Source: Candidatus Magnetaquiglobus chichijimensis
GTDB lineage: Bacteria; Pseudomonadota; Magnetococcia; Magnetococcales; Magnetaquicoccaceae
Direction of reading: 5' to 3'
NCBI RefSeq assembly: GCF_045865675.1
Contig: NZ_BAAFGK010000002.1
Coordinates: 435,989-467,988 of the forward strand
DNA: 32,000 nucleotides
Below are positions 3,161-31,373 of this stretch, piece by piece. The position numbers and the translations under genes were made by a program. The notes beneath the pieces were generated by a model that had not been told where the DNA came from, ran no database searches, and saw only the letters and a program-made list of their open reading frames with translations. The stretch's first letter is position 1. Every line of letters starts with the position of its first letter.

Positions 3161-3190
3161 ACGATAGAGAGGTGGGGTGTGGGGTGTCAA
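3161..3190 (-). promoter_or_regulatory. Candidate sigma-70 promoter for the riboswitch-btuB transcript
   Basis: On the minus strand there is a perfect TTGACA (rc of 3185..3190), an 18-nt spacer, and TATCGT (rc of 3161..3166). This is placed about 10 nt upstream of the apparent start of the riboswitch. Confidence 0.4.
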
Positions 3191-3408
3191 GGGGGAAAAA
3201 TGGGCGGGGAGGATGTAGAGGATGTGGAGGGGGCGGGTGGAATGGTTGTGATGATTAATTATTAAAGTTATTAAAAGGGTTCAAAGTCAAATCGGAGAGC
3301 CGTGTACGGAAAAACCGTAAGCACGGTTCGATCAGGGGGGGGAACGGGTCGCAGGACACCGCGCCCATGCTTTTTTTACGCCCCGGACCCTGCCGGTTTG
3401 TGCGCGCG

Positions 3409-5031
3409 TCATCCCCCCGTCATCCCCTCCACCAACTCGACCAGCCTGGGCAAATCCACCTTGTTGTTGGCATTGAGCGGCAATTGGGATAACCTTTGTA
3501 ACTGTTTGGGCACCATGTACGGTGGCAAACGCCGCGCCATCTCGGCCAGAATCTCTTCGTCCGCGACCTTCGAACCACTCACAAATCCCACCACACTCGT
3601 GACATTCCCCCCGCGTGGCGGCCAGCCGATCACCGCGACCTGCTCGCTTCCGGCAACCTGACGCAACACATGCTCGATCTCAGACAACTCCACCCGATAA
3701 CCTCGGATCTTCAACTGCCGGTCCACACGATCCAAATAGTGGTAACCCACCCCGTCACGCCACTCCACCAGATCCCCGGTCCGGTACCAACGCCGCACCA
3801 TCCCGTCCGGTCCCGACATCTCCCGATAGCTCTTTTCGGTCTCGACGGGATTGCGCCAATACCCCGGCGTCACCTGCGAACCCGCCAGACACAACTCCCC
3901 ACGCGCACCATCCTCGTTGGCGATCAGTCGATCATCGACCAACAACGCCGCCATCTGACCCGGATAGGGGAGACCGATCGGCACGATGTCGTTGAGACAC
4001 TCCCCATCCGAAACATCGCCACGCCAGAGGTAGCCGGTGACGCAGATTGTCCCCTCGGTGGGACCGTAACTGTTGTCGATCACGGCGTTGGGAGCGGCAA
4101 CCTGCCAGCGCCGCGCCGCTTCGCGTCCGAGTCGCTCACCACCAAACACCGTCCAACGCAACGATGGAAACGCACCAGGACGCAACAGATGCATGCGCCG
4201 CATGAAATCGATCACCGCCGGAACCGACTCCCAAAAGGTGATCCCATGCTCCTGAATGAACTTCGCCGGGGCCATGCGCTGCTCTTCAGGCACCGGATAA
4301 AGCGTCGCACCCGCAGCCCAGCAGACGAACTGGTCATACACCGAAGCATCAAACGTCATGTCGCTGTGCTGCGAAAACCGATCCTCCGGAGTGGGACGAT
4401 ACCGCTCGATCATCCCCTCCACGAACGCCTGAACATTCTCCTGGGAAACCATCACCCCCTTGGGAATCCCGGTGCTGCCCGAAGTGAAGAGCAGATAGGC
4501 GATGCCGTGGTTGGGAGATTTGGGTTCGCGGATGGTTCTGGGAACCACGGCCAACTCGGACTGGCTGATGAAACGATGTCTCGACTGGTTCGCGGTCCAC
4601 TCGGGCAGAACGGCGTGATCCGGCATGAGCACGGTCAATGGACGCGGCATCTGCTCCAGAAGTTCTTGCGCACCCTCCGCGCACCGGCCATCCAGAATCA
4701 ACATCCCGATTCCGGACAGATCGGCGATGCGCAGGTTGCGCGCCACCGGGAAGTGCGGGTTGAGCGGTACATATCCCTTGCCGGCATACAGAATCGCCAA
4801 CACGGCGGCATAGGCGGTCGCACTGCGATAGCCGAACATCCCCACCGTCGGTTGTTCCGGGTCAGGGTCGTGCGCTTCGATGGCCGAGGCGAGCGCCAAT
4901 ACCCGCTCCAGGATCGCGGCGTAACGGAACGTCGTGCCCCCCACGCACAGGGCGAGATGGTCGCCCCGACGCAGGGCGCTTTGATGGAATCCAATGGCGA
5001 TGTTGATCGGGCTGGGGCTGTTCATCCGCAT
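3409..5031 (-). CDS. Stand-alone adenylation enzyme (AMP-dependent ligase), DltA-like carrier-protein ligase
   Basis: 540 aa. It carries the adenylate-forming superfamily core motifs 'LLFTSGSTGIPKGV', 'YGPTEGT', 'YRTGDLVEW' and 'LKIRGYRVELSEIE', and a C-terminal 'NNKVDLPRL'. There is no fused carrier or condensation domain. It is the last gene of a carrier/MBOAT/ligase operon. Confidence 0.85.
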   Translation of the reverse strand: MRMNSPSPINIAIGFHQSALRRGDHLALCVGGTTFRYAAILERVLALASAIEAHDPDPEQPTVGMFGYRSATAYAAVLAILYAGKGYVPLNPHFPVARNLRIADLSGIGMLILDGRCAEGAQELLEQMPRPLTVLMPDHAVLPEWTANQSRHRFISQSELAVVPRTIREPKSPNHGIAYLLFTSGSTGIPKGVMVSQENVQAFVEGMIERYRPTPEDRFSQHSDMTFDASVYDQFVCWAAGATLYPVPEEQRMAPAKFIQEHGITFWESVPAVIDFMRRMHLLRPGAFPSLRWTVFGGERLGREAARRWQVAAPNAVIDNSYGPTEGTICVTGYLWRGDVSDGECLNDIVPIGLPYPGQMAALLVDDRLIANEDGARGELCLAGSQVTPGYWRNPVETEKSYREMSGPDGMVRRWYRTGDLVEWRDGVGYHYLDRVDRQLKIRGYRVELSEIEHVLRQVAGSEQVAVIGWPPRGGNVTSVVGFVSGSKVADEEILAEMARRLPPYMVPKQLQRLSQLPLNANNKVDLPRLVELVEGMTGG

Positions 5032-7048: not shown

Positions 7049-7405
7049 GTGGGCATGCTCGGATATGTGATTCTGGGGTTGTCGGTGTTGCTGGTGTTCG
7101 TGCCCCTGGTGGGCGGTTATGGAACCCTGGTGCCTGGCGTGTTGGCGTTTCTGGCTCGGGGAACCGGGTTGATGCCTGCCTTGGCCGGAGTGGGGATTAA
7201 TGGGATCCATCTGCTGTTTTTTTCCGATTTTCTCCGTTTCAACGCCGCCTCCGGAATGCGGGACGGGGTTTGGACGCCGGTGGTGATCTATGTCCTGCTG
7301 ATCCTGGTGCAGTTGGGCGCGGGGATCCTGTTGGGGATGCGGCGTTTTCTGCCTGTCGCTTCCGATCAACGATCGGGGGCGGGTCCCAGTCGTGGGAGCA
7401 CATGA
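7049..7405 (+). CDS. Hypothetical small membrane protein
   Basis: 118 aa with 3-4 hydrophobic helices ('MLGYVILGLSVLLVFVPLVGG', 'VVIYVLLILVQLGAGILLG'). GGGAGGG lies 9 nt upstream of GTG 7049, and an alternative ATG is at 7055. The 3' end overlaps the convergent tesA-like gene by 40 nt. I recognised no family. Confidence 0.45.
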   Translation: MGMLGYVILGLSVLLVFVPLVGGYGTLVPGVLAFLARGTGLMPALAGVGINGIHLLFFSDFLRFNAASGMRDGVWTPVVIYVLLILVQLGAGILLGMRRFLPVASDQRSGAGPSRGST

Positions 7406-8008
7406 CGCCACACCGTCTCGAGAATCACCCGATACCCGGCGCTGGTGGGATGGATGCCATCGGGTTGGTTCGTGACCGGATTGCCGGCTACGCCCTCCAG
7501 GAAAAAGGGGATCAGGTCGGCACCGCTCTCCTCGGCCACCTCCGGGTAGATCGCCGCGAACCGTTCCTCGTAGCCGCCGCCGTAATTGGGCGGCAGACGC
7601 ATGCCACCGAGCAGGATCCCTACCCCGGTTCTTTTCAACATAGCGTTGATCTGCAACAGGTTCTCCTTCATGATATCCAGATCCAGACCACGCAGGCCGT
7701 CGTTGGCGCCCAGCACCACGATGGCCAGGGTCGGCTTGGCGCGCAGCGACCACTCCAGACGCCGCAACGCTCCCGCCGTGGTGTCTCCCGACAGGCCGGC
7801 ATTGATCACGCGGTGCGGATAGCCGTGTTGCGCCAGACGCTGTTGCAGCATGGAGGGGTAATCGGTTCCGGGCATCACCCCCCATCCGGCGGTCAGGCTG
7901 TCGCCCAGACAGAGGATCACCGGCCTTTCGTCGGCGTGCGCGGGAGTGGAAAACATGAGCATGACTCCAAGAAAAAACAGATAAATAGATCGATTACGAG
8001 GCTTGAAC

Positions 8009-17385: not shown

Positions 17386-18911
17386 GGGGTCTGACGATGG
17401 GTGGGTTGCGCGGGGTGCGGCGGGTCTACGCGGGATTTTCGCTGGCGCTTTTTGCCTTTTTTCTGTGGAGCGCCGAGTTCGAGCGGCTCAAGGGGTACGC
17501 GGTCGGCCTGTTCTTGCAGATCGATCCCTTGACCGCCCTTTCCGGTTTTCTCACCAGTCAGACGTTGTACAAAGGATTGGCCTTCGCGTTGCTGATCCTG
17601 ATTCCCACGCTGTTTCTGGGGCGCTTTTTCTGTTCGTGGGTCTGCCCCCTGGGGATCCTCAATCAGGGGTTGAGCCACCTTTTCAACCGTCGCCGCGCGG
17701 TGGAGAACTGGGAAGAGAACCGCTACCGCCCGCTCTACCGGCTGAAATACTACCTGCTCGTCGCCCTGCTGATCTTCGCCATCCTTGGCGCGTTGCAGAT
17801 CGGTCTGCTCGACCCCATCGCCCTGATCTACCGATCCTTTGCGCTCTCGGTGCTGCCGGCGCTGGATCGGGTGACCGGGGGAGGGATCTTCGCCCAATCC
17901 ACCGTGTTCCACGGCGGTGTGTTGATCGCTGTGATCCTGCTGGCCATCCTGCTGGCCAACCGCTTCATCACCCGTTTCTGGTGTCGCGCCCTCTGTCCTC
18001 TCGGCGCGCTGCTCGGGGTACTCTCCCAATGGTCGATCCTGAGAATCCGCCGCGACGTGGAACGCTGCAACCATTGCAAACAGTGCCTGCGCGCCTGTCA
18101 GGGCGCCGCCGATCCGGATGGACAGGTGCGCGTCACCGAATGCCACCTCTGCATGAACTGCATCGAGGCGTGCGGAACCCAGGCGTTGCACTACGGCCTG
18201 GCCGGAGAAAAAAGCTCCATCGGCAAACCGCTCGATCTCAACCGCCGCCGGGTGGTCGAGATCGCCCTGGCCTCGGTGGTGGCCGTGCCGATGACCAAGG
18301 GGTCGCTCTCGGCCCGCTCCGCCCCACTGCCCGAGGTGATCCGTCCGCCCGGTTCACTCACCGAGGTGCAATTTCTCGCCCGTTGTATCAAATGCGGCCT
18401 CTGCATGCGCGTCTGCCCCACCAACGTGCTGCAACCGGCCCTGCTCGAGGCCGGTTTTGAGGGGCTCTGGACCCCGATCCTGATGAATTCGGTCGGCTAC
18501 TGCGAACACCATTGCGTGCTGTGCGGCCATGTCTGCCCCACGGCGGCGATCCGTCCGCTTTCGGTCGCGGAAAAGGTTGGCGCGCCACCCTTCACCCAAC
18601 CGGTCCGGCTTGGAACCGCCTTCTTCGACCGGGGACGCTGCCTTCCCTGGGCCATGGATGTGCCGTGCATCGTCTGCGAGGAGACCTGTCCCACCTCGCC
18701 GAAGGCGATCTGGTACGAATCGGTCACCGTCAGCGGACGCGACGGTCGCAAGGTCGCCCTGAAACGGCCCTTCGTGCAGCCGGAACTGTGCATCGGTTGC
18801 GGGGTGTGCGAAAACAAGTGTCCGGTGACCGATCTGGCCGCCATTCGTGTCTCCTCGGTGGGCGAAACCCGCTCCAGGGAGAATCGCATGCTGTTGAATC
18901 AACAGTCGTGA
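17382..18911 (+). CDS. Integral-membrane polyferredoxin (NapH/NosR-type CX3CP membrane module plus multiple 4Fe-4S motifs)
   Basis: About 505-509 aa. GTG 17382 overlaps the upstream stop (GTGA), and an alternative ATG is at 17397. Two membrane-embedded 'C..WVCPLG'/'CRALCPLG' motifs are present. Six Cys clusters follow: 'CNHCKQCLRAC', 'CHLCMNCIEAC', 'CIKCGLCMRVCP', 'CVLCGHVCP', 'CIVCEETCP' and 'CIGCGVCENKCP'. Confidence 0.8.
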   Translation: MRGLTMGGLRGVRRVYAGFSLALFAFFLWSAEFERLKGYAVGLFLQIDPLTALSGFLTSQTLYKGLAFALLILIPTLFLGRFFCSWVCPLGILNQGLSHLFNRRRAVENWEENRYRPLYRLKYYLLVALLIFAILGALQIGLLDPIALIYRSFALSVLPALDRVTGGGIFAQSTVFHGGVLIAVILLAILLANRFITRFWCRALCPLGALLGVLSQWSILRIRRDVERCNHCKQCLRACQGAADPDGQVRVTECHLCMNCIEACGTQALHYGLAGEKSSIGKPLDLNRRRVVEIALASVVAVPMTKGSLSARSAPLPEVIRPPGSLTEVQFLARCIKCGLCMRVCPTNVLQPALLEAGFEGLWTPILMNSVGYCEHHCVLCGHVCPTAAIRPLSVAEKVGAPPFTQPVRLGTAFFDRGRCLPWAMDVPCIVCEETCPTSPKAIWYESVTVSGRDGRKVALKRPFVQPELCIGCGVCENKCPVTDLAAIRVSSVGETRSRENRMLLNQQS

Positions 18912-19019
18912 GGGATGCGTTGATTGGCCTGAAAAATTTGTATGCCGACCGGATTGCTGTTCTGAATCAGGATCAAGAATGACACCTGATGACGCTTCGG
19001 CGCGCTCTTTTCTGCCTTG

Positions 19020-19427
19020 TCACGATTTGCCGATATCCCGTCGGGCGGTGGAGATGGTCACGGTGAAGCCGGCCACCACGTCCAGGAGCGACATCAGGGT
19101 GATGGTCAGAAACAGCGTGGTTCCCGCTGGTTTGTAGATCAAAAATTCGATCAGAAAACAGACGAACACGATCATGGAGAGCAGATGATCGACGATGGAC
19201 TCCGTGCCGGAGCGGGTGGCCTTGAAGATTTCGATGTAGAGCGACACCACGCCGAGCATGATCAGGATGTCGGCCACCGTGAAGGTGAGTTGGGCCCCGG
19301 AGGAGAGCATGAAGGCGATGACCGGCGATTGCGGGTTGAGTTCCGGATAGGTTTTCTGGCCGAACATGATGCCGTTGAGCAAGGCGAGCATCACGGTGAA
19401 CAGCGGGATGGATTTGGCGAGCAGCAT
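19020..19427 (-). CDS. Hypothetical small integral membrane protein
   Basis: Only the last 135 aa of the 493-aa track ORF look coding. ATG 19427 is preceded by AGAGG. Four hydrophobic helices are present ('IPLFTVMLALLNGIMF', 'ILIMLGVVSLYIEIF', 'LLSMIVFVCFLIEFLI', 'LFLTITLMSLLDVVAGF'). The upstream part of the ORF is antisense to htpG. Confidence 0.6.
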   Translation of the reverse strand: MLLAKSIPLFTVMLALLNGIMFGQKTYPELNPQSPVIAFMLSSGAQLTFTVADILIMLGVVSLYIEIFKATRSGTESIVDHLLSMIVFVCFLIEFLIYKPAGTTLFLTITLMSLLDVVAGFTVTISTARRDIGKS

Positions 19428-19658: not shown

Positions 19659-21584
19659 ATGAGCACGTTGGAAGGCAAACAGACCCGTGCGTTTCAGACC
19701 GAGGTGCGGCAGTTGTTGGATCTGATGATCCATTCGCTGTACAGCAACAAGGAGATCTTTCTGCGCGAATTGATCTCGAACGCCTCGGACGCGGCGGACA
19801 AGTTGCGGTTCGAGGCCATCGCCAACGATGGCCTGTACGAGGGGGATGCCGAGGTCGCCATTCGCATCACCTTCGACAAGGAGGCCAACACCCTGACCAT
19901 CTCCGACAACGGCATCGGCATGAGCGCCGAGGAGGTCGAAGCCAACATCGGCACGATCGCCAGGTCGGGCACCCGGGAGTTCCTTCAGTCGTTGCAGGCC
20001 GACCAGGCCAAGGATGCCAATCTGATCGGGCAGTTTGGCGTGGGGTTCTATTCGGCCTTCATCGTCGCCGATCGGGTGACGCTGTTGACCCGGCGCGCCG
20101 GTCTGTCGTCCGGAGAGGCGGTGCGGTGGGAGTCGGCGGGAGATGGGGTCTACACCCTGGAGAACATCGACAAGCCGGCGCGCGGCACGGATGTGATCCT
20201 GCATCTGAAGGCCGAGGAGAAGGATTTTCTCGATGACTGGCGTTTGCGCTCCACGGTGCGCAAGTTCTCGGACCATGTGCCCTGGCCGATCCTGATGCTT
20301 CAGTCCAAGGGGTTTGAGCCCGAGGAGGAGGAGGCCGGAGAGGAGACGAAACCCGAATCCGACGACACCCCGCAATGGGATACGGTCAACAAGGCCTCCG
20401 CGCTCTGGACCCGCGCCAAGTCGGAGATAACCGAAGAGGAGTACAACGCGTTTTACAAACATGTTGGTCACGACTTCGAGGAGCCTCTGGCCCACATCCA
20501 TGCCCGGCTCGAGGGCAAGTACGAATACACCGTGCTGTTGTATGTTCCCAAGCGCGCGCCTTATGATTTATGGGATCGGGATCGCAAGCACGGGGTGAAG
20601 CTCTACGTGCGTCGTGTCTTCATCATGGAAGGGGCCGAGGATCTGATGCCGCGTTACCTGCGCTTTGTGCGCGGCGTGGTGGACTCCACCGACCTGCCCC
20701 TCAACGTCTCCCGCGAGATCCTCCAGAAGAACCCGGCGGTGGATGCCATCAAGAAAGGGATGACCGGCAAGATCTTCTCGCTGCTGGAGGATCTGGCCAA
20801 GAACGATGCCGAGAAGTACCAGACCTTCTGGGATACCTTTGGCGTGGTGCTGAAAGAGGGGGTGATCGAGGATTTCGCCCACCGCGAGCGGGTGGCCAAG
20901 CTGCTGCGTTTCTCCAGCACCCATGCCGATTCCAAGGTGCAGGATGTCTCCCTGGAAGCCTACGTCTCCCGCATGCGCGAAAAGCAGAAGGCGATCTACT
21001 TCGTCAACGGCGAATCCTTCGAGGCGGCGCGCCACCATCCGCATCTGGAGGTGTTCCGCAAGAAGGGGATCGAGGTGTTGCTGCTCTCCGACCGGGTGGA
21101 CGAGTGGCTGGTGACCCATCTGCACGAGTTCGACGGCAAGCCGTTGCAGTCCGTGGCCAAGGGCGGGTTGGACCTCGGCGAGCTGGAGGACGAGGCCGAC
21201 AAGCAGGAGTTGGAGAAACAACAGGGTGAGTTCAAGGATCTTTTGGAGCGGGTCCAGAAAGGGTTGGGCGAGCAGGTGAAGGAGGTGCGCATCACCAACC
21301 GGTTGACCGACTCCCCCTCCTGTCTGGTGAGCGGCGAGCACGATCTGTCCGCCTCAATGGAGCGCATTCTGCGCGAAGCCGGTCAGAAGACCCCGGACAC
21401 CAAACGCACCCTGGAACTCAACCCCTCCCATCCTCTGGTGGGGCGGTTGAAGGGGGAGACCAACGATCAGCGTTTCGACGATCTCTCCCATGTGTTGTTC
21501 GCCCAGGCGTTGTTGAGCGAAGGTGGACAGTTGGAGGATCCGGCGGAGTTCGTGCGCCGTTTGAACGGGTTGTTGTTGGGGTGA
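19659..21584 (+). CDS. htpG: Molecular chaperone HtpG (bacterial Hsp90)
   Basis: 641 aa. It has the N-terminal GHKL ATPase signature '[40 protein letters not shown]', plus 'ISDNGIGM' and '[12 protein letters not shown]', and is full-length with the typical middle and C-terminal domains. Confidence 0.97.
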
Positions 21585-21661
21585 TCAAGAGCCGATGCGG
21601 TTCGCCAGATCGTAACCGTTCAGACCCATGATCACGGGGGCCGGGGGCGATTATCGCCCCC

Positions 21662-21686
21662 GGTGGGATCCAAGGGCAAAGCCCTT
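21662..21686. repeat. Left copy of the 25-bp inverted repeat bounding the low-GC islet
   Basis: GGTGGGATCCAAGGGCAAAGCCCTT. Its reverse complement matches 23572..23596 at 24 of 25 positions. In both copies the repeat is adjoined on the outer side by a GGGG...CCCC hairpin. Confidence 0.85.
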
Positions 21687-21700
21687 GGGACGTTTTTTTT
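21670..21700 (+). terminator. Intrinsic terminator of htpG
   Basis: The stem is CCAAGGGC (21670..21677) pairing with GCCCTTGG (21681..21688) around the loop AAA, followed by GACG and T8 (21693..21700). A second perfect 11-bp hairpin lies just before it: CCGGGGGCGAT-T-ATCGCCCCCGG (21641..21663). Confidence 0.85.
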
Positions 21701-23571
21701 GACTTGTATTTTCGATCGTTTTTATAATAAGCATTTTGCGCATTTTTTTTGCGAAAAATGCGCAAGCGCGCGACGGCATTGCAAACCCTGCCAAGCAACT
21801 TTCATGATAAAAACCATCCAGACAACGGAATCGAGAAAGTATCAGACAGCCTGATGACTGATCTGAACGGTTACGGAATTTTCTCTCCAATTTGGTATTG
21901 TATCCCCGGAAGTATAATGGTTTTTTAATTATTTTGCATTCTTATTATTTTTTAGTGCTCGCGTTGCAGGCGTTAAAAAATAAGAATAAATGGATTGATG
22001 GTTGTCTTTGTCTTCTATTTTATTGAGGTCTAGGCTGTTATCGTTGATTGCTCTTATAATATTCCAAGCTGTTCTTTTATGATTGCCTGCTCCATCAATA
22101 ATATCCACGCTCAAGAGTTCACCTGTAATCGGCATGTCCTTAATTGCCTTTGTATAATTGCCAGGAAAAGATCGTACCCAGGCTTCTGAAATCCAAACGA
22201 GACCAAAAGCTTTTAGCGTAATTATTCTATCTGCAATATATCTCGAAAATATAAATTTATCAGAATGATCTTCGAATTGTGTACCAATAAAATCTACAAG
22301 CTTCCAGTTTTCGTTAAATAAAAATAGTATTGAAATATGATGACCGTAATTATGAAATATCTTTTCGGCCGTCGTAACATGGAACTCAAAAATATTTTCC
22401 AAATTTGTCAATTGCAGTTTATTGCTATTGTGCGCATCAATAAAAACCTGGTTTGGCTTGAAATTACGACATAAACGAACTGATTCTGACTTCACAGAAT
22501 ATTGTTTTCTATTATTAAGTTTGAGATATTTTATGCGATTGTTATTTTCAAATAAGTTTTTTAACTCTAAAGGTTTTTTAATGCTTTTATCTAAATAAAT
22601 TTTTAGATGATCCGCTAGACTTCTACAACAATCAAAAATTCGTGCATAAACATAAACAAGAGCTTCTAATAATTCTCTTTGTTTAAGAGATGATGTAACC
22701 CATTGTCTTTCAATTTTGATTACAGCAGATTTTGAAATTCCAGTAGGTAGATTCTTTTGGGTAAAGCGTACTAATTTTTTTAAGCCTGCATTTAATAGCT
22801 CTGATTTTTCAGTATTAATAATGATGTCTTTTTCTTCAAGATGAGAGAAAATGAGTGACAATTTGAGAGAACTATGTAAATCCAGGTCACCTTCTTTTTC
22901 TATAACATTTCGTGCGTCCTTGGCCCACGTCATTACTTCGTCTGACTCCCATGCATTTCTAACTTCGTTTGTATACCAAACATCAAAATTTGGGATTGAC
23001 TCTTTGTTCTTTTGAATAATAAAAGTTACTGTCCGAGATGTTTGTAAAAAATTATTTGTATTTTTTCTAAACATGTCTGGTTCCATATAGTTCCGGAAAC
23101 AATACTCAAGATCGATTGATAAATCCTTCAATCTTTTTTCCCAAGGTTTCATGTCGCATGGATCCAATTTTTTAGATGTTAGCAATACTGATCAAAAAAG
23201 CATTTAACAATTAACATCTTGGCATTATATTTATAATAATGTTTTGGAGTTAATTTTGCAATGAAAATTCATGTTGGTTCGGTTTCAGATCGGGGATGCA
23301 TGGGGATGGGATCAAATACCTTTGGGGATGTTGAATTTTCTTGGAATGGAGCAGATAGGATGAGGCGGCCTGTGCCTATTTCAGATCGCCAAACTGTGGA
23401 TGGGCCAAGGCACCACCCCGAGGTGACCGGTGGGGCGAGCGCGTCCGTTTTGATTAAGAGAAATGCGCTTTTGTAAAGCGCGTCAAAGGATAAAGGTTAA
23501 AGGCTGACACTAAGGTATGGAAACGAAAAAAAGTTAATAATAACAAATATAAAGTCTAAAGTCACAATCCT
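21693..23571. other. Low-GC (about 30% by eye) genomic islet between the convergent htpG and PKS genes
   Basis: There is an abrupt compositional switch. A sampled line at 22021..22080 has 20/60 G+C, against 43/60 at 24001..24060. The islet holds a single long ORF and is bracketed by the inverted 25-bp repeats. Confidence 0.75.
21929..23185 (-). CDS. Orphan hypothetical protein encoded in the low-GC islet. No family recognised.
   Basis: It is the only long ORF in the islet: 418 aa from TTG 23185, or 407 aa from the first ATG at 23152. It is Lys/Asn/Ile-rich, consistent with AT-rich coding. The N-terminal half looks helical and the C-terminal half beta-rich. I saw no transposase (DDE, HUH), integrase, RT or NTPase motifs. 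Confidence 0.7.
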   Translation of the reverse strand: MLTSKKLDPCDMKPWEKRLKDLSIDLEYCFRNYMEPDMFRKNTNNFLQTSRTVTFIIQKNKESIPNFDVWYTNEVRNAWESDEVMTWAKDARNVIEKEGDLDLHSSLKLSLIFSHLEEKDIIINTEKSELLNAGLKKLVRFTQKNLPTGISKSAVIKIERQWVTSSLKQRELLEALVYVYARIFDCCRSLADHLKIYLDKSIKKPLELKNLFENNNRIKYLKLNNRKQYSVKSESVRLCRNFKPNQVFIDAHNSNKLQLTNLENIFEFHVTTAEKIFHNYGHHISILFLFNENWKLVDFIGTQFEDHSDKFIFSRYIADRIITLKAFGLVWISEAWVRSFPGNYTKAIKDMPITGELLSVDIIDGAGNHKRTAWNIIRAINDNSLDLNKIEDKDNHQSIYSYFLTPATRALKNNKNAK

Positions 23572-23596
23572 AAGGGCCTTGCCCTTGGATCCCACC
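23572..23596. repeat. Right copy of the 25-bp inverted repeat bounding the low-GC islet
   Basis: AAGGGCCTTGCCCTTGGATCCCACC is the reverse complement of the left copy with one mismatch. It overlaps a 10-bp-stem hairpin, CCACCAGGGG (23592..23601) pairing with CCCCTGGTGG (23615..23624), that lies downstream of the PKS stop. Confidence 0.85.
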
Positions 23597-23674
23597 AGGG
23601 GAAAAATCTATGAACCCCTGGTGGGCGTAATTACGGTGGCTGAACACCTGGGAATGGTGCGTAAGAAACCTGGA

Positions 23675-26600
23675 TCAGGAGATCTGCGCCATGGTGCTCA
23701 TCAACTCCTGCAACAACAACGCCTCGGCCTCGTCGTCGGAGAGCGCCGCCACCGCCTGATCCGGAGCGGGCGCGGCATCGGTCGGGACAGTCTGTTCGCC
23801 GGTGTCCGGGAAGAGGCTGGTCATGAGGAAGTTGGCCAGGGCGTCGATGGTGGGATAGTTGAACACCAGCGACGAGCCCAGGGAGAGTCCCACTTCGGCC
23901 TCGAGCTTGTTCTTGAGTTCGACCGCGGTCAGGGAGTCGATGCCCAGATCGAACAGCTGCACATGCGGGAGCACCCGCTCCAGATTCGGAATGCCCAAGA
24001 CCTTGGCGACCAGGGCGCGGATGTGATCCACCAGCAGATCCCGGCGCGCCCCTTCCGGAGCGTCGTTCAGCTCTCCCCGGAGTTGGGAGCCTCCCTTGTG
24101 ACCCGCCTGGGCATCGCTGGCGATCAGCGGCGAAAAACGTGGCACCCGCGTGGCGCCGGGATTCACCTGGGCAAAGCTCTCCCACTCGACGTGCAACACC
24201 CCCAACTGGGCCGGATTCCAGCGCAGCACCCGGGCAAAGGCGTTCAAGGCCTGGGCCATGGCGATGGGATGGATGCCGCCACGCCGCAGACGCTGCTCCA
24301 CCTCCTTGTCGCGTGCGGCCATGCCCACCTCCCCCAATGCCCCCCAGTTGATGCTGGTGCCGGGCAGGCCCATGGCGCGGCGGGCGTGGGCCAGGCCGTC
24401 GAGGAAGGCGTTGGCGGCCACGTAGTTGGCCTGGCCGGCATTGCCGATCAGGGAAGAGACCGACGAGAACAGCACGAAGAAATCGAGCGGCAACGATTGG
24501 GTGGCCAGATGAAGATGCCAGGCGCCCAGAGCCTTGGGTTCGAGCACCCGGCGCATGCGGACCGGATCCAGATCCGGAATCAGGCCGTCGTCGAGGACGG
24601 CGGCGGCATGGATGACGCCGCGCAGCGGTGGCATGGCGTTGCCGATGCGCTGGATCAGCCGGTTCACCTCGTTGGCGTTGGTCACGTCCATGGCCACGGC
24701 CATCACCCGTACCCCCTGGGCCTCCAGACGGGCCACGGCCTGTCTGGCCTCCTCCGAGGCCGCTCCCTTGCGACCGGTCAAAACCAACTGTCGCACCCCC
24801 TGATTGCCCATCCAGAAGGCCAGTTCCAGGCCGAAACTGCCGAAACCGCCGGTGATCAGATAGCTCCCGTCGGCGTGGAACAGGGGTGGTTCCTGACGCG
24901 GCGGGAGGATGGTCATCGGTCCGGTGCCGCGCATGTCGAGCACCGCCTTGCCGAGCTGGCCGGATTGGACGTGCTCGAAGGCTTCGCCCGCCCGGTCCGC
25001 CGGGAAGACGTGGGTCTGGATCGGCTTGAAGGTGCCGTTGGCGAACTGCTCGGAGATCTCCTCGAGCAGTGCCGGCATGATATCCTTGCGCCGGGCCAGA
25101 TGGTCCAGGTCCACGGACATGAAACTGGCGTTGCGCTCCACGCTGGCCAGGTTCCAGGTGGCATCCTTGCGGGCCGCGAACTCGCCCAATTCGACGAACC
25201 GTCCGAATGGCGCCAGGGCCTGCACGCTCTTCTGTCCAGCCTCGCCGCCCAGGGTGTTGAAGATCACATCCACGCCGTGGTCATCGGTCGCGGCCATGAT
25301 TTGTTCGACATAGACCGGGAAACGGCTGTCGAAGACATGTTTGAGGCCGAGGGAGCGCAGATACTTGCGCTTTTCCGGCGAGTCGGCGGTGACGAAGAGC
25401 TCCGCGCCGCGCCACTGGGCCACCTGGATGGCGGCCAGTCCCATGTCTCCATGGGCGCCATGGATCAGAACCTTTTCCCCCGAGCCGGAATAGGAGCGGA
25501 ACAGGCCGAAATAGGCGGTCAGAAAGGCCATCGGCAGCCCGCCGCACGCCGCGTCGCCGATTCCGGCGGGTCGCGGCATGGTCCAGATCGACTTGACCGG
25601 CAAGGTGACATGCGACCGGAATCCACCCGGCAGGATCGCCAGGACCGCCTCGCCGCGTTTGGGCGCGGTGACGCCGGGACCGGTGCGGGCCACCACGCCG
25701 GAGATCTCCATGCCGATGCCATCGCCGAAGAAACTCTTCGCCGAGCCGCTCTCCGGATCGCGTTGGGTCAGGCGCAACACGTCACGCATGCCGATGCCGG
25801 CGGCATGCACCTCGATTTCGATCTCGCCTGGACCGGGCGGACGCCGTTCGCAGGCGCGCAGCCGCAGCGAGGAGAGCGCTCCCGGACGTCCGATCTCCAG
25901 CGCGAAGGGGGGGCGCATGGTGGGATCGTCCGTGACCGGCTGGGTGTTCTGGGTGAGGACCGCCGACGCCTCGCGCACCATCCGGTTGACCAGCCGTTCG
26001 CCGTCGCGCCAGGCCACTTCGCTCTCCGCCGAGTCGGCCAGAACCTCTACGGCGATGGCCGCCAGGGAGCCGGTTTCCTCCCGGGGATCCAGATCGAGCA
26101 CCGTGGCGCGCAGATTGGGCTGTTCGCTCAAACTCACCCGCGCCAGACCCACCAGCGCGGCTTGATGCAGACCGGAGAGGGGTGCACCGTCATGGACCGG
26201 TTGGGCTCCGCGCGTCACCACATAGAGACGCGGCGGGGGCAGGGCGCGTCCGGTCGGGTTCTCACCCTTGGTCAGGGTTTGGATCAGGCTCAACGTGTCG
26301 TTGACCGACCGGATGCCGACCGGATCGGTCGTCTGGGTCGCGTCGAAGTCGCTCCACAGGGCGATCACCGCCCGACATGGGCCGGTTTGATGGAACACCG
26401 CTTCCAGGTGGTGATTCGGGATGCGGATCAGATCCGGATGGGGGGAGTCGAGTTGGGCGAGGGTCTTATCGCGCACCACCCGCACCACCCGCGCCGCGCC
26501 GCGTCCGGTCAACTCCCTGGCCAACGCGTCGCCGGTCTGGCCGGCATCCTCCAGCACCAGAATCGGCAGATCACGCGACTCCGGCGCGAGCAGCCCCGAA

Positions 26601-29600
26601 GGGAGCGGTTCGGCCTGGGGCTCCCAGGCGAGCCCATGGAGCCAGGCATCCAGATGGGCGGCATCGTCCTCCTCTTGTCCTTTGGGCAGCGCCTTGCAGC
26701 GCAGCTTCTCCAGCGCCACGAAGATCCGGCCATCCCGGTCGCACAGGGTCAGGTCACACTCGATGAAACGGTCGTTGGTCTCCGTGACCAGCAAATGGCA
26801 CCAGAAGGGGGTGGTCGGCGTGGCGTAAAAACGCAGACGCTGGATCCCGACCGGCAGATAGAGCCCGGCATCGGCCTTCATGGTCACCATCAATGCCTGG
26901 AAGCAGGCGTCCAGCAACGATGGATGCAACCGGTAGGCGTCATCCGCCGCGCTCCAGGCGTCGTGGGCCGCCACCTCGACCAGCACCGCGTTTTCGCAGC
27001 GCATCAATTGCTTCAATCCCCGGAACCAGGGTCCGTAATGGAGTCCCATGCCATCCAGTTGCGCGTACACCGTGTCGATGTCCACCTTCTCGGCGCAGAA
27101 TCGACGAATGGCGCCCAGATCCAGATGACCGGCCTCGCCGATCCCCTCCGAGGAGATCACCCCCGAGGCGTGCAGCGACCAGCGATCCGATTGATCCTGT
27201 CGCTGTCCGTGCACGGTGTAGCGGTGCTGACCCGGATCAAAGGCGATGTGCAACTGCACGTCGCCGCTCGTCCCCAGGACCATGGCCTGATGAAAACGGA
27301 GCGACTCCAACAGGCAGGGGGCATCGTCGTTCAAGGCGCGGTGGATCGCCAGTCCGATCTCCACATACCCCGCGCCCGGAAAGACCACCGACCCTTCCAC
27401 CTGGTGATCGCGCACGAAGGGCACCAGGTCGATGTTGATCTGGCTCTCCCAGGCCGGCGAGGGGGTGTTGACCCGTTGGGCCAACAGGGCATGCTCCACC
27501 TGGTAGAGCCGGTCGAACAGCGCCGCCTGGCTCTCCGGCCAGTAGCGTTCCCGCTGCCACGGATAAAGAGGCAGTTCCAGATGCTGCTCGAAAGATTCGG
27601 GATAGAGCCGGCTCCAGTCGAGGGGATAGCCGAAGGTGTGGAGCTTGCCCAGACAGTCGAGCACCGTGGCCCGCTCGGGCTTGCCGCGATTCAACGTGAA
27701 CAACGTTTCGCCCGGGGCGCCGGCGTGTGTCAGACACTCCTTGATCGAGGTGCCCAGCACCGGATGCGGGCCGATCTCGATGAACAGACCGTACCCATCG
27801 GCGATCAGGGATTGAATCGCCGCCGCGAAGAGCACCGGTTCGCGCAGGTTGTCGCACCAGTAATCGGCGTTCCAGTTGGCTTGCGTCACCTGTTTGCCCG
27901 TCACCGTGGAGTAGAGCGGCAGGGTGGGCACGCGGGGATTCAGAGGCTGCAACGCGGTGCGCAGTTCCGGTTTCAAGGGGTCCATGGCCGGGCTGTGATA
28001 GGGGATATCCACCCGCAGGAAGCGGTTGAAGACCCCTCGCTCCGTAAGCTCGCTGGCGATCGCTTCGAGTGCCTCGGCATCGCCGGCCAGATTGGTGGCG
28101 TTGGGGCTGTTGATCGCCGCCACCACCACCTTGCCGCCGTGGGGGGCCAGGACCGTCGGACACTCGTCGGGTTTCAGCCCCACCGCCAGCATCCGTCCCG
28201 CGCCCACCGCCCGTTGTTGCAGGTGGCTGCGATGATAGCTCACCAGCACCGCGTCCTCCAGGCTCAAGACGCCGGCGAGATAGGCTGCCGACACCTCGCC
28301 GAGGCTGTGACCGACGATGGCCGCCGGTTCCACCCCCCAGGCGCGCAGCATGGCCACCAGACCCAGTTGCACCACGAAGTTGCCCGGTTGGGCAAACTGG
28401 GTTTCGGTAATGCGTGATTCCGCCTCCGGACGGCTCATCTCTTCCAGGATCGACCAGCCGCAGACCTTTTGCAACAACCGGTCGATGGTCTCGGCGGTCT
28501 GCCGGAAGATTGGCTCTTCGGCCAGCAGTTGCCGCCCCATGGCCCACCATTGGGGACCCATGCCGGTGAGCACGTAGACCGGGCGCCGGACCTGCCCGGC
28601 GTTGAGTTTGGTGGCGGACAGGGGCAGGGCGTCCGGAGCGGAGAACGCCTTGAGTTGCTCGATCAGGCTCGCCTTGGAGTCGGCCACGATGGCCAGGCGG
28701 CGATCCAGATGGGTGCGGTGGACGCCGGCGGCCCGTCCCAGGTGGGGCAGGGCGGGGGTGTTTTCCTGCTCCAACAGCGCGAGCCAGCGTTTGGCCAGGG
28801 CCTTAAGCCCCCCCTCGCAGCCTGCCGAAAGGGGGATCAGCCAGGGTTTGCCGTCTTCGGCGACCGTTGGACGGGCCGGAATCTCCGGGGCCTGGGAGAG
28901 GATCGCGTGGGCATTGGTGCCGCCGTAGCCAAAGGAGTTGACCCCGACGAAGGCCGGTCCGTCGCCCTCGGGAAGGGGTTGGGCGGTGCGAGCCACCTTC
29001 AGGCGCAGCTCGTTGAAGGGGATGCGCGGATTGAACTCCTGGAGGTTGGCCTGGGGCGGGATTTGACCATGGGCCAGGGTGAGGGTGGCCTTGATGAGTC
29101 CGGCGACGCCGGCGGCGGCTTCCAGGTGACCGATGCTGGATTTGACCGAACCGACGAAACAGGGTTGATCCGCCGGGCGACCCTGGCCATAGACCGCGCC
29201 CAGGGCCTTGCACTCCGTGGGATCGCCCAGGGCGGTGCCGGTGCCGTGGGCCTCGATGTAGCGAATGCGTTTCGGATCGATCCGGCCATCCGCGCACACC
29301 TTTTCGATCAACGCCTGTTGGGCCGGACCGCTCGGCACGGTGATGCCGTTGGTGTGACCATCCTGGTTGGCGCCGGTGGCATGCACCAGGGCGTAGATGT
29401 GGTTGCCGTCGCGCTGGGCCGCGGAGAGCGGTTTCACCAGCACGATGCCGGCCCCCTCGCCGCGTCCATAGCCATCCCCTCGGGCGTCGAAGCTCTTGCT
29501 GCGTCCGTCGGCGGCCAGGAACTGCCCCTTGTGCAAGGCGATGTTGTACTCCGGTCGGATCATCAGGTTGACCCCGCCGGTCACGGCCATGGAACACTCG

Positions 29601-30259
29601 CCGTTCCACACCGCCTGGCAGGCCTGATGGAAGCTCACCAGCGACGAGGAGCAGGCGGTATCCATGGCGATGCTCGGGCCGAGCAGATTGAAGGCGTGGG
29701 AGATGCGGTTGGCCAGCATGGCCAGGTTCACGCCGATGGCCGAGCTGTTGTTGAGCTGGAGCCGGTTCAGGGGGCTCAAGGTGATGGCGGTGAAATCCTG
29801 CATGAAGCCGCCGATGTAGACCCCGGTATTCGAGCCGTTGAGCCGCTCCATGTCCAGACCCGCGTCCTCGCATGCCTCCCACGTCACCTCCAGCAGCAGC
29901 CGTTGTTGCGGATCCATGGCCTGGGCATCGCGGGGCGAGATGCCGAAGAAGAGCGGATCGAAGCCGTCGATGTTGGTTTGCAGAAACCCTCCGTGGCGTA
30001 CCGGCATTTTTCCGGGACGGTTGGGATCCGTATCCGCGAAGCGACCCAGATTCCAGCGTTCCGGCGGGGTTTCGATCACCCCGTCGCGCCCTTCGATGAG
30101 CATGCGCCAGTATTCGGCCCGGCTGTGGGATCCGCCGGGGAAGCGGCAGCCGATGCCGATGATGGCCAGAGGCTCGCGCGGCGGGCGGCGGGTGGAGGGG
30201 GTTTGGGCGGTTTGATGAGCGTTATCCATGAGCTTCCATCTCGTGCAATCGAAATTCAT
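23675..30259 (-). CDS. Type I polyketide synthase, single fully reducing module KS-AT-DH-ER-KR-ACP
   Basis: 2194 aa. An alternative ATG at 30229 has a better GGAAG RBS. Approximate domain coordinates:
- KS 28892..30175: 'DTACSSSLV' with Cys203, 'EAHGTGT', 'GHLEAAAG'.
- AT 27620..28582: 'GHSLGEVSAAY', and FabD-like 'IPYHSPAM', suggesting malonyl.
- DH 26675..27517: 'HQVEGSVVFPGAGYVE'.
- ER 24932..25912: 'LIHGAHGDMGLAAIQVAQ'.
- KR 24320..24871: 'YLITGGFGSFGLELA', 'NYVAANAFLD'.
- ACP 23810..24052: 'LGIDSLTAVEL'.
There is no thioesterase or reductase release domain. Confidence 0.95.
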   Translation of the reverse strand: MNFDCTRWKLMDNAHQTAQTPSTRRPPREPLAIIGIGCRFPGGSHSRAEYWRMLIEGRDGVIETPPERWNLGRFADTDPNRPGKMPVRHGGFLQTNIDGFDPLFFGISPRDAQAMDPQQRLLLEVTWEACEDAGLDMERLNGSNTGVYIGGFMQDFTAITLSPLNRLQLNNSSAIGVNLAMLANRISHAFNLLGPSIAMDTACSSSLVSFHQACQAVWNGECSMAVTGGVNLMIRPEYNIALHKGQFLAADGRSKSFDARGDGYGRGEGAGIVLVKPLSAAQRDGNHIYALVHATGANQDGHTNGITVPSGPAQQALIEKVCADGRIDPKRIRYIEAHGTGTALGDPTECKALGAVYGQGRPADQPCFVGSVKSSIGHLEAAAGVAGLIKATLTLAHGQIPPQANLQEFNPRIPFNELRLKVARTAQPLPEGDGPAFVGVNSFGYGGTNAHAILSQAPEIPARPTVAEDGKPWLIPLSAGCEGGLKALAKRWLALLEQENTPALPHLGRAAGVHRTHLDRRLAIVADSKASLIEQLKAFSAPDALPLSATKLNAGQVRRPVYVLTGMGPQWWAMGRQLLAEEPIFRQTAETIDRLLQKVCGWSILEEMSRPEAESRITETQFAQPGNFVVQLGLVAMLRAWGVEPAAIVGHSLGEVSAAYLAGVLSLEDAVLVSYHRSHLQQRAVGAGRMLAVGLKPDECPTVLAPHGGKVVVAAINSPNATNLAGDAEALEAIASELTERGVFNRFLRVDIPYHSPAMDPLKPELRTALQPLNPRVPTLPLYSTVTGKQVTQANWNADYWCDNLREPVLFAAAIQSLIADGYGLFIEIGPHPVLGTSIKECLTHAGAPGETLFTLNRGKPERATVLDCLGKLHTFGYPLDWSRLYPESFEQHLELPLYPWQRERYWPESQAALFDRLYQVEHALLAQRVNTPSPAWESQINIDLVPFVRDHQVEGSVVFPGAGYVEIGLAIHRALNDDAPCLLESLRFHQAMVLGTSGDVQLHIAFDPGQHRYTVHGQRQDQSDRWSLHASGVISSEGIGEAGHLDLGAIRRFCAEKVDIDTVYAQLDGMGLHYGPWFRGLKQLMRCENAVLVEVAAHDAWSAADDAYRLHPSLLDACFQALMVTMKADAGLYLPVGIQRLRFYATPTTPFWCHLLVTETNDRFIECDLTLCDRDGRIFVALEKLRCKALPKGQEEDDAAHLDAWLHGLAWEPQAEPLPSGLLAPESRDLPILVLEDAGQTGDALARELTGRGAARVVRVVRDKTLAQLDSPHPDLIRIPNHHLEAVFHQTGPCRAVIALWSDFDATQTTDPVGIRSVNDTLSLIQTLTKGENPTGRALPPPRLYVVTRGAQPVHDGAPLSGLHQAALVGLARVSLSEQPNLRATVLDLDPREETGSLAAIAVEVLADSAESEVAWRDGERLVNRMVREASAVLTQNTQPVTDDPTMRPPFALEIGRPGALSSLRLRACERRPPGPGEIEIEVHAAGIGMRDVLRLTQRDPESGSAKSFFGDGIGMEISGVVARTGPGVTAPKRGEAVLAILPGGFRSHVTLPVKSIWTMPRPAGIGDAACGGLPMAFLTAYFGLFRSYSGSGEKVLIHGAHGDMGLAAIQVAQWRGAELFVTADSPEKRKYLRSLGLKHVFDSRFPVYVEQIMAATDDHGVDVIFNTLGGEAGQKSVQALAPFGRFVELGEFAARKDATWNLASVERNASFMSVDLDHLARRKDIMPALLEEISEQFANGTFKPIQTHVFPADRAGEAFEHVQSGQLGKAVLDMRGTGPMTILPPRQEPPLFHADGSYLITGGFGSFGLELAFWMGNQGVRQLVLTGRKGAASEEARQAVARLEAQGVRVMAVAMDVTNANEVNRLIQRIGNAMPPLRGVIHAAAVLDDGLIPDLDPVRMRRVLEPKALGAWHLHLATQSLPLDFFVLFSSVSSLIGNAGQANYVAANAFLDGLAHARRAMGLPGTSINWGALGEVGMAARDKEVEQRLRRGGIHPIAMAQALNAFARVLRWNPAQLGVLHVEWESFAQVNPGATRVPRFSPLIASDAQAGHKGGSQLRGELNDAPEGARRDLLVDHIRALVAKVLGIPNLERVLPHVQLFDLGIDSLTAVELKNKLEAEVGLSLGSSLVFNYPTIDALANFLMTSLFPDTGEQTVPTDAAPAPDQAVAALSDDEAEALLLQELMSTMAQIS

Positions 30260-30296
30260 TCAGCGCGATGTTCCAGCATTGGTGCGCGCGGGTCTG

Positions 30297-31373
30297 TCAC
30301 TCCGGGATCACCGGCATCTCGGTGAAGCGTCCGTCGTGGTTCTTGAGCAGATAGCGGGTCTCGTTTTTGTCCACGATCGCATCGTTGGTCAGAAGGGAGA
30401 TCTTGCCGATGTTGGTGGCGATCACGTAGAGCGGCTGGGCCAGTCCGGTGGTGTGACCGCGCAGGGCATCGCGGATCAGTTCCGAGCCTTTTTCCAGCGG
30501 GGTGCGGAAGTGATCGATGCCCGGTGCCGCCTCGCAATAGAAAAGATAATAGGGACGCACGCGGATGCTCAAGAGTTTTTGATGCAGCTCGCGGAAAACC
30601 GGCACCGTGTCGTTGATCCCCTTGAGCAGCACCGCCTGATTGCCGACGTTGATCCCGCAGGTGGTCAGGTCATAGACCGCGCGGGCGGTGAGTTCGGTGA
30701 TCTCGCGCGGGTGGTTGATCTGGGTGTTGACCCAGATGGGAACCTTGTGATATCCGGACAATTTTTTCATCAGCGAGGCATCGATGCGTTGCGGCAGCAC
30801 CACCGGCAGGCGCGAACCGAAGCGGATCATCTCGATGTGTGGGATCTCCCGCAGCCGGCGGAGGATGTATTCGATCTCGTCGTCGTTGAGCAGCAGGGGA
30901 TCGCCGCCGGTGATCAGCACGTCGCGGACCTCCGGGTGGTCGGCGATCCAGTTGAGGCCCTCGTCCACGTCCAGGCGCAGTTTGAGCACCTTGTCGATGG
31001 TCACCTCGCGCCGGAAGCAGTGGCGACAGTAGATGCCGCAGGTTTGGGTCACCGCGAAGGCCACCCGGTCGCGATACTGGCGGGCGATCGAATCGGGACG
31101 CTTCTCCTCGGTGCTCCGGTTCTCTTTCCAGACCAGATACCCTTCCATGCCCAACTCGTTCTGGAACTCGAGCATGGAGGGGATCACCTGCTTGCGGATC
31201 GGGCAGTTGGGGTCATCCTTGTCCATCAGGCTGGCGAAATAGGGGGTAGTCCCCCAGCGGGTGTGTTTGTGGGCGAGAATGGCTTCCCGTTCCGCAGGGG
31301 TGACGTTGATGAATTTTTCGAGCTTTTCCAGTGTGTTGACGTGATTTTTGAGTTGCTCTCGCCATGCGTTCAT
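30297..31373 (-). CDS. KamA-family radical SAM aminomutase (lysine 2,3-aminomutase-like)
   Basis: 358 aa. 'TTPYFASLMDKDDPNCPIRKQVIPS' matches the KamA N-terminal signature. The radical SAM motif CGIYCRHC is encoded at 31017..31040. 'GINVGNQAVLLKGINDT' is also present. It ends 37 nt upstream of the PKS ORF on the same strand. Confidence 0.85.
   Translation of the reverse strand: MNAWREQLKNHVNTLEKLEKFINVTPAEREAILAHKHTRWGTTPYFASLMDKDDPNCPIRKQVIPSMLEFQNELGMEGYLVWKENRSTEEKRPDSIARQYRDRVAFAVTQTCGIYCRHCFRREVTIDKVLKLRLDVDEGLNWIADHPEVRDVLITGGDPLLLNDDEIEYILRRLREIPHIEMIRFGSRLPVVLPQRIDASLMKKLSGYHKVPIWVNTQINHPREITELTARAVYDLTTCGINVGNQAVLLKGINDTVPVFRELHQKLLSIRVRPYYLFYCEAAPGIDHFRTPLEKGSELIRDALRGHTTGLAQPLYVIATNIGKISLLTNDAIVDKNETRYLLKNHDGRFTEMPVIPE

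Follow-up and report, generated by a model that had tools for sequence, protein, structure and literature searches.

An AT-rich gene of the lambda Ea47 family beside Magnetococcales hairpin repeats at the htpG–polyketide synthase junction of Candidatus Magnetaquiglobus chichijimensis

Introduction

What is the short AT-rich segment that lies between htpG and a type I polyketide synthase (PKS) gene in Candidatus Magnetaquiglobus chichijimensis FCR-1, and do the inverted repeats at its sides mark the ends of a mobile unit? The locus is part of a 32,000-nucleotide stretch of contig NZ_BAAFGK010000002.1 (positions 435,989 to 467,988, forward strand), which is referred to here as the window and numbered from its first nucleotide. 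An initial annotation of the window described a repeat-bounded islet of about 1.88 kb carrying one orphan open reading frame (ORF), and proposed it as accessory cargo such as an anti-phage or abortive-infection gene. There is little doubt that the gene is a horizontally acquired member of the family of phage lambda Ea47 and that the flanking repeats belong to a host family; its product is a new member of a known family without assigned function. Lambda Ea47 has itself been catalogued for decades without a function, and the interest of the locus lies chiefly in the resemblance of this family to a defence candidate and in its bearing on the role of the lambda protein.

Identity of the Ea47-family gene

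The ORF spans 21929–23185 on the minus strand and encodes 418 aa from a TTG codon, at the coordinates first reported; its real start is most likely the ATG at 23152, which gives a gene of 407 aa (21929–23152) rather than 418. This start is favoured because a deposited protein of Candidatus Magnetaquicoccaceae bacterium FCR-1 (P0001, 407 aa, 100% match) is identical from that position and because the PHROG profile aligns from there. Residues are numbered here on the 407-aa form; 11 is added for the 418-aa ORF. The protein aligns by tblastn to lambda ea47 over residues 2–406 with 40% identity (E 3e-84), a full-length homology that removes the gene from the orphans. The PHROG family phrog_19262 is matched at E 2.9e-94 over profile positions 3–404 of 410; it is the sole PHROG match and a family of unknown function. 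P0001 carries a precomputed assignment to PF26900 (Phage_lambda_Ea47). The local Pfam scan gave no significant match because the version scanned predates PF26900; its one match, to Cbl_N (E 0.038), is at chance level and below the cut-off.

Out of about 15 billion proteins, the nearest distinct one shares 53% identity, and a HMMER search at E <= 1e-3 gathers 863 clusters at 50% identity; members whose source is named come from Vibrio, Shewanella, Methylobacter, Methylibium, Frateuria and other Magnetococcales. Across 95 diverse members including lambda, R40, W76, R81, D89, S94, R149 and W151 are invariant, and all seven are kept in the FCR-1 protein. Near-invariant positions in the same alignment are R7, Y22, P25, F28, T43, F44, Q47, K50, W59, Y60, N82, K86, G88, L90, E160, K299, E323, W325 and E345. 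As the ORF is intact, the gene is probably functional, judging by its sequence.

Composition and extent of the foreign segment

The G+C content of 200-nt windows is 0.60–0.66 in htpG, falls to 0.24–0.40 over about 21700–23300, and returns to 0.60–0.72 in the PKS gene, so that the reported collapse between the two genes is borne out. By segment, G+C is 0.316 in the ORF and 0.285 in its promoter region, against 0.61–0.64 in the rest of the window. The flanking genes face each other across this dip, as described: htpG, for an Hsp90 chaperone (19659–21584, plus strand; HtpG P0269, 100% match), lies to the left, and the gene for a type I PKS of 2194 aa with KS-AT-DH-ER-KR-ACP domains (23675–30259, minus strand; identified from its ORF and a domain scan) lies to the right, on the host side of the dip. 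The Ea47-family gene is the only long ORF within it. About 70 nt upstream of the ATG, a predicted sigma-70-like site (TTAACT-18-TATAAT, 10/12, by consensus match only) is placed at 23224–23253 on the minus strand, and the foreign segment thus comprises a single intact gene with its own predicted promoter, in agreement with the initial reading.

The extent first proposed was too large. The clearly foreign stretch, consisting of the gene and its predicted promoter, is about 21890–23290, or some 1.4 kb; it is shorter because 21636–21782 and 23545–23625 are homologues of a repeat, making up about 230 nt of the supposed islet, and because 23290–23450 is host-like. This last patch (G+C 0.565), between the promoter of the gene and the right-hand repeat, is probably host intergenic DNA and not part of the insertion; a 71-aa ORF within it has no Pfam match. 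A scan of the islet against Rfam returned no match at E <= 0.1.

Genomic context of the Ea47 family

In lambda, ea47 lies in the non-essential b region and adjoins ea31 and ea59; the gene was scored as non-essential by CRISPR interference (CRISPRi; PMC10695390). When compared with PADLOC, lambda Ea59 matches PtuA (E 5e-184) and PDC-M01A, and Ea31 matches PDC-M01B (E 6e-113); the two neighbours of ea47, found together at L120:1937-4401, look like a Septu-type defence pair by sequence. No paper naming ea59 together with Septu was found in the full-text library searched, nor was one assigning a function to lambda Ea47. Among viral contigs, 25 IMG/VR loci were examined; in the 17 that are non-redundant the neighbours are tail-fibre proteins and integrases, and several of the neighbours also match Drt4, PDC-S06, PDC-S24, PDC-S31 and PDC-S39.

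Bacterial members are found in varied surroundings. In Vibrio misgurnus (CP113242, L115:1-17233) an Ea47-like gene belongs to a long run of short ORFs on one strand, several of them DUF645, whose layout resembles a chromosomal integron-cassette array. One relative lies in a chromosomal island together with an integrase, LmuB_C, MC3 and CTD7; a Shewanella relative adjoins RloB and AAA_15, and another is part of an enterobacterial island that apparently splits a nitroreductase gene. Solitary relatives are seen among housekeeping genes in Methylobacter, beside an insertion sequence, and in a high-G+C contig. The loci have no conserved partner gene in common; DUF2971-like neighbours are shared in one enterobacterial island only. 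On plasmids, seven records hold full-length matches of about 40% identity, five of which are lambda-sized (about 48.5 kb) and are read as lambda contaminants; four distant plasmid matches come from Acidithiobacillus, Streptomyces and Nocardia.

In each of the 22 non-redundant loci the gene is poorer in G+C than its surroundings; the gap is 0.02 or more in 21 loci, and in FCR-1 the difference is -0.30. By context and composition, the family has the signature of frequently transferred accessory cargo. The proposal of accessory anti-phage cargo therefore stands in part: the mobile behaviour of the family elsewhere supports the cargo, and the defence or abortive-infection role is circumstantial, as the protein has no PADLOC match and the locus no defence neighbours. 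By bare count, defence genes are seen next to several relatives; the neighbours in FCR-1 are htpG and the PKS gene. A large, AT-rich and mostly stand-alone family (the 863 clusters above) in accessory and defence hot spots fits the profile of a conflict system yet to be discovered. If it proved to be a single-protein defence or exclusion system, a function would be gained for one of the last unassigned genes of lambda.

Structure prediction and the search for a mechanism

Scans of the FCR-1 protein against NCBIfam and PADLOC gave no match at E <= 10, and lambda Ea47 likewise matches none of the PADLOC families at that threshold (PADLOC-DB 2.0); for the protein, the suggested PADLOC search thus returned nothing. 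Pfam scans of the 95 family members produced scattered chance-level matches only, and PDB sequence profiles gave no match. The AlphaFold model is of good quality, with a predicted local distance difference test score (pLDDT) of 88.7 and a predicted template-modelling (TM) score (pTM) of 0.83. Its N-terminus, approximately residues 1–190, is modelled as a four-helix bundle with a small β unit; the C-terminus is an α/β domain in which four longer strands come after two short ones. When the whole model is compared with the PDB by Foldseek, weak GAF-like matches are obtained (E >= 5.7e-3, TM about 0.14); against BFVD, only uncharacterised phage proteins are matched. The N-terminal module alone (pLDDT 82.7) gives nothing below E 0.4. 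The structural route to a function, proposed as a check, therefore ended without a significant PDB match.

Longer relatives offer some architectural context. A SEC-C zinc motif follows the Ea47 core in eight of ten that were scanned, four of which also carry C-terminal TPR repeats; the ninth has an N-terminal DUF5677 instead. These fused distant relatives are 570–917 aa in length (P0210, P0218, P0230, P0260, P0245, P0248, P0256, P0259 and P0243). Architectures in which a core module carries fused sensor-like repeats are associated with conflict systems. A link to DUF5677 was rejected, as hhalign of the Ea47 family against the N-terminal DUF5677 region of the fused relative found no relation.

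The initial annotation had also singled out the peptide RSLADH (R188 and H193 of the 418-aa ORF, R177 and H182 of the 407-aa form) as a weak hint of a HEPN domain, and an abortive-infection toxin of the HEPN RNase type, with this peptide as its catalytic motif, is the least credible of the explanations considered, with next to no probability. The motif does fit the minimal Rx4-6H pattern and sits in a helix; however, the arginine is present in only 7 of 52 relatives (K in 15, Q in 11, E in 7) and the histidine in 33 of 52, and neither is among the conserved columns of the 95-sequence alignment. No HEPN family was matched in the Pfam or PADLOC scans and no HEPN structure is found among the Foldseek matches, so the reading was dropped.

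Repeats flanking the gene

The 25-mer GGTGGGATCCAAGGGCAAAGCCCTT at 21662–21686 (plus strand) recurs at 23572–23596 on the minus strand with one mismatch, as first reported, and none of 100 shuffles equalled this match. The inverted arms extend to 34 nt with 91% complementarity (21657–21690 and 23568–23601), and the outer GGGG...CCCC hairpins described for both sides are present at 21641–21663 and 23592–23624. Each 25-mer is part of a larger element. The left copy (about 147 nt, 21636–21782, plus strand) contains hairpin A (21641–21663), hairpin B with a T-run (21669–21689), which a terminator scan finds terminator-like, and hairpin C (21736–21765); it is 75–80% identical over 136–153 nt to dozens of copies in other metagenome-assembled genomes (MAGs), and its fold has a z-score of -3.5. 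The right copy (about 81 nt, 23545–23625, minus strand) is shorter, with hairpins A' (23592–23624) and B' (23570–23588), and its homology to other copies is limited to 23545–23625.

When one genome of each species was scanned for GGTGGGATCCAAGGGCNNNGCCC, at least 110 loci came up; almost all of the 80 that are listed come from Magnetococcales MAGs. The 25-mers are thus members of a structured repeat family found across the order Magnetococcales, and it is for this reason that the argument from boundaries falls; a repeat of the REP (repetitive extragenic palindromic) kind had been foreseen in the initial annotation as one outcome that would remove this argument. Many copies are located at contig ends, and some form tandem arrays with a 25-nt period or inverted pairs. 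In aligned copies the element is composite: hairpin A (GGGGTCCAGGGG-loop-CCCCT) is followed by hairpin B, which is the 25-mer, and then by further hairpin units or by a T-rich tail and a third hairpin. The stems are strongly maintained; among 71 distinct copies, 98.2% of cells are paired, compared with 25–66% in slid controls. Both sides of a pair are changed in 70 cells versus 26.8 +/- 3.2 in shuffles, and none of 500 shuffles reaches the observed covariation; five pairs have both-side changes that 0–4 of the 500 shuffles match. The inner pairs of hairpin A alternate between GC, CG, UA and AU.

The surroundings of the repeats are mostly those of the host. Among the 98 copies with enough flank to be scored, 94 abut DNA of host-like G+C; two of the other four are the copies of the window. 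Inverted pairs also enclose ordinary host-G+C genes in L031 and L070, and the element was not found in a search of viral contigs. For annotation, the lesson is that these inverted 25-mers constitute a lineage-wide repeat and are not to be read as the ends of a mobile element.

Several observations add to the description of this family. Tandem arrays and double inverted pairs about 320 bp apart are seen among L001–L110, for example at L048:1374-1448, L028:6638-7052 and L078:4744-5164; the family is so frequent at contig ends that assemblies are probably broken by it, and the variants AAGGGC..GCCCTT and AGGGGC..GCCCCT preserve the stem. In scaffold_43 of Magnetococcus sp. YQC-9 (L044:1902-4268) a low-G+C islet at 2113–4235 contains an orphan ORF of 512 aa (2521–4059, G+C 0.39), which has no PADLOC match and whose best PDB match, at E 0.11, is not meaningful. 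This islet adjoins a complete repeat copy resembling a miniature inverted-repeat transposable element (MITE), with 31-nt terminal inverted repeats. It is bordered by 33-nt direct repeats (97% identity), each an additional copy of the element's right terminal repeat, and a degenerate inverted copy of the tail of the element lies at about 4100–4225.

A second repeat, AATTGGTATGGTGTCCCCGGATTTC, forms inverted arrays of three and about seven copies (L111:5778-5861 and 7143-7448) around the Ea47-like gene of another Magnetococcales locus. Palindromic pairs of it are present elsewhere at L053:1453-1561 and L058:6792-6861, and one pair lies directly 3' of an ORF taken by eye as Transposase_31/Rpn-like. 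In the window, TTGGTATTGTATCCCCGGA at 21892–21910 (plus strand), 19 nt from the ORF stop, agrees with AATTGGTATGGTGTCCCCGGATTTC at 17 of 19 positions. It is the best match of the window to that repeat (score 15, where the highest of 40 shuffles reached 13) and is probably a relic of it, oriented with respect to the gene like the arrays that flank the Ea47-like gene of L111.

History of the junction

In related genomes whose HtpG is 85–92% identical, synteny ends 12 bp past the htpG stop, at 21596 by blastn to L121–L123; these genomes, including the three closest by HtpG (87–92%), have neither the PKS gene nor the repeat downstream of htpG. Downstream of the nearest PKS C-terminus (66% identity) lie different genes. 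From these comparisons no empty site could be defined at the junction, and the alignment suggested for finding one did not succeed, the synteny of the relatives ending after htpG. Because the relatives diverge at that point, the islet falls at the border of a larger stretch that is specific to the strain. The PKS gene and an upstream radical-SAM/aminomutase-like gene (23675–31373, minus strand) are strain-specific, being absent after htpG in the genomes with an HtpG 87–92% identical. The flanks were also compared with those of L111, and local alignments were no better than shuffles; the shared 19-nt repeat hints at a common carrier, though the flanks are otherwise unaligned.

Proposed origin and alternatives

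In the proposed account, approximately 1.4–1.7 kb of AT-rich DNA would have been acquired horizontally into the terminator-rich gap between htpG and the PKS gene, a convergent gap where an insertion would settle without harm. The acquired DNA would have consisted of one intact Ea47-family gene with its predicted promoter. A foreign origin is argued from the G+C of the gene (0.316, versus 0.617 for the rest of the window), from the distance to the nearest protein (53% identity) and from the stop of synteny after htpG. The repeat copies would be host furniture and at most a landing hot spot, rather than the ends of a mobile unit; it is fairly probable that they had no mechanistic role in the acquisition. 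The protein may act as a single-protein factor in phage–host conflict, either in defence or in superinfection exclusion. Its conserved N-terminal helical and β module, which includes the seven invariant residues R40, W76, R81, D89, S94, R149 and W151, would be the active part; the C-terminal α/β domain, with K299, E323, W325 and E345, would serve in regulation or sensing, a role that the SEC-C and TPR fusions of distant relatives would extend. A conflict role is proposed because the relatives are stand-alone and AT-rich, and are found in prophage accessory regions, beside a Septu-like pair, in the integron-cassette-like array of Vibrio and in islands with Lamassu-like or RloB/AAA_15 genes. By this analogy a defence or conflict function is considered possible, falling somewhat short of an even chance, and the account as a whole is held with somewhat better than even confidence. 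The broader claim, that the Ea47 family is a widespread single-protein anti-phage or superinfection-exclusion system with a fold that has no solved relative, is offered tentatively and is more doubtful still.

Several points weigh against this account. No defence, phage or mobility gene is found near the FCR-1 locus. A biochemical function cannot be assigned from the Pfam, NCBIfam, PADLOC or PDB searches, and Foldseek against the PDB finds nothing at E <= 1e-3 for either the whole model or the N-terminal module. The genes of the lambda b region are expressed in lytic growth, which fits a role on the side of the phage as well as it does defence. For the repeats, the 32-kb window holds only two copies, both of which flank the islet, and no copy was found in 59 kb of independently fetched Magnetococcales DNA. 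Copies located after the 3' end of a gene are only modestly favoured (50 versus 32, with crude ORF calling), and a rule by which the repeats follow 3' ends in the sense direction was not relied on. L044 offers a further low-G+C islet with a single gene, whose repeats likewise have their tails inward. Because of the scarcity of copies, the weak orientation rule and the case of L044, a link between repeats and insertion retains some probability.

In the strongest form of such a link, the inverted repeats would be functional ends of a non-autonomous cargo, akin to a mobile insertion cassette or to a MITE that carries a passenger; a transposase acting in trans would have moved it, or recombination between copies of the repeat would have captured it. 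The position of the only two copies in the window, flanking the islet with their tails inward, would fit this, as would the L044 islet of 2.1 kb, which shares the repeat family and the geometry and adds the 33-nt direct repeats, and the placement of the L111 Ea47-like gene within inverted arrays, a relic of which lies 19 nt from the stop of the FCR-1 ORF. Ends of a mobile unit would not, however, be expected from copies of which 94 of 98 flank host-G+C DNA and which form pairs around ordinary genes. The two copies in the window are unequal (147 versus 81 nt) and their own G+C is host-like; no target-site duplication lies beside either arm. Beyond the arms, and likewise beyond the outer hairpins, the two sides have different bases (GCGATTATCG versus AAAAATCTAT and GATCACGGGG versus CGTAATTACG), and a listing of inverted and direct repeats of the window shows no flanking direct repeat next to the arms. 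The window is without a transposase, the unit is found nowhere else (the nearest protein being the 53% relative), and the terminal repeats of L044 have no significant match in the window. Such a cargo, the main structural alternative, is therefore considered improbable. A related idea, that the Magnetococcales hairpin repeats mark or create capture sites for single-gene cargo, is likewise regarded as less likely.

Two further readings involve a phage. The gene could be the last remnant of the accessory region of a decayed lambda-like prophage whose other parts were deleted; lambda and the 25 IMG/VR loci place the family between tail-fibre genes and an integrase, a region that often outlasts the decay of a prophage. 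The FCR-1 locus, however, has no flanking phage gene, integrase, att-like tRNA or pseudogene fragment; no tRNA is present in the window, and the flanks are htpG and the PKS gene followed by the radical-SAM gene. The low-G+C stretch is moreover short (about 1.4 kb) with sharp edges, and the ORF is intact, with no invariant residue lost, which makes a remnant very improbable. As the main functional alternative it is also conceivable, with a probability that is low and slightly above that of a repeat-bounded cargo, that Ea47 proteins serve the phage itself in counter-defence or host take-over during early lytic growth, and that the chromosomal copy was captured or is idle. Lambda ea47 is expressed early from pL. 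A phage-side role would also suit its place in the dispensable b region, the CRISPRi score given above, and the lack of a defence HMM match. Against it stand the many solitary chromosomal members without a prophage (FCR-1, L112, L151 and the Vibrio array) and the members in defence-gene islands, a distribution typical of cargo that benefits the host. Horizontal acquisition of an Ea47-family gene next to host repeats thus remains the preferred account, in which the conflict function is the more tentative part.

Comparison with known systems

Lambda Ea47 is the closest known system. The two proteins are homologous over their full length (407 versus 410 aa) and share the invariant residues; each gene is markedly richer in A+T than its replicon (G+C 0.31 versus 0.47 in lambda, 0.32 versus 0.62 in FCR-1), and both are accessory, non-core genes. 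The FCR-1 gene differs in standing alone between a chaperone gene and a PKS gene with its own predicted promoter, without a prophage, Ea31/Ea59 (Septu-like) neighbours or an integrase, and in being hosted by a magnetotactic member of the Magnetococcales rather than an enterobacterium. Because lambda Ea47 has no assigned function of its own, no mechanism can be carried over from the homology. Single-gene anti-phage systems, such as the PDC-S candidates of PADLOC and the Abi (abortive infection) proteins, are similar in being stand-alone, low-G+C genes of roughly 400 aa that are distributed patchily over the phyla; relatives are likewise located beside known defence genes, in prophage accessory regions and in one integron-cassette-like array. 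In contrast to these systems, the FCR-1 protein has no sequence or fold match to catalogued defence proteins, and its locus lacks a defence neighbourhood.

Proteobacterial REP palindromes, the bacterial interspersed mosaic elements (BIMEs) and hairpin MITEs are short, G+C-rich, imperfect palindromes in intergenic DNA. The Magnetococcales repeat resembles REP elements and, in some genomes, MITEs: it is multicopy and intergenic, its copies stand alone, repeat in tandem every 25 nt or form inverted pairs, often at contig ends, and its hairpins are kept by compensatory changes, some copies being terminator-like. It is unlike REP and BIME elements in its Magnetococcales-specific sequence, in its composite form of two to three different hairpins with a T-rich tail (80–150 nt), and in the 31-nt MITE-like terminal inverted repeats of at least one genome (L044); no RAYT (REP-associated tyrosine transposase) or other transposase is linked to it, FCR-1 being seen over the 32-kb window only. 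Mobile insertion cassettes consist of passenger genes bounded by terminal repeats without a transposase. The inverted repeats around one non-transposase gene (34-nt arms, 91% complementary) are reminiscent of them; the lack of a target-site duplication, the unequal ends, the unrepeated unit and the location of most repeats beside ordinary genes are not.

Additional features of the window and its relatives

Arms of a 24-nt palindrome at 21611–21634 and 21852–21875 enclose the left repeat; the first 14 nt, CGTAACCGTTCAGA, are perfect, and the T-rich TTTTCTCT follows the arms. The palindrome 21611–21875 may be the native terminator stem of htpG split by the repeat element; alternatively, the arms may be terminal repeats of the element itself. 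A predicted sigma-70-like site (TTGACT-18-TATAAT, 11/12) lies at 21699–21728 on the plus strand in the T-rich tail of the left repeat; it points at the 3' end of the Ea47-family gene in antisense orientation, and other copies of the repeat do not keep its -10 element. Upstream of htpG, two of the HtpG relatives have a Transposase_31 (Rpn/YhgA-like) gene between a ferredoxin-type gene and a small ORF (L122:7100-8343 and L123:7137-8342), where the window has only 123 bp (18907–19030). A cobalamin riboswitch (RF00174, 102 bits, E 1e-24) is located at 2932–3161 on the minus strand.

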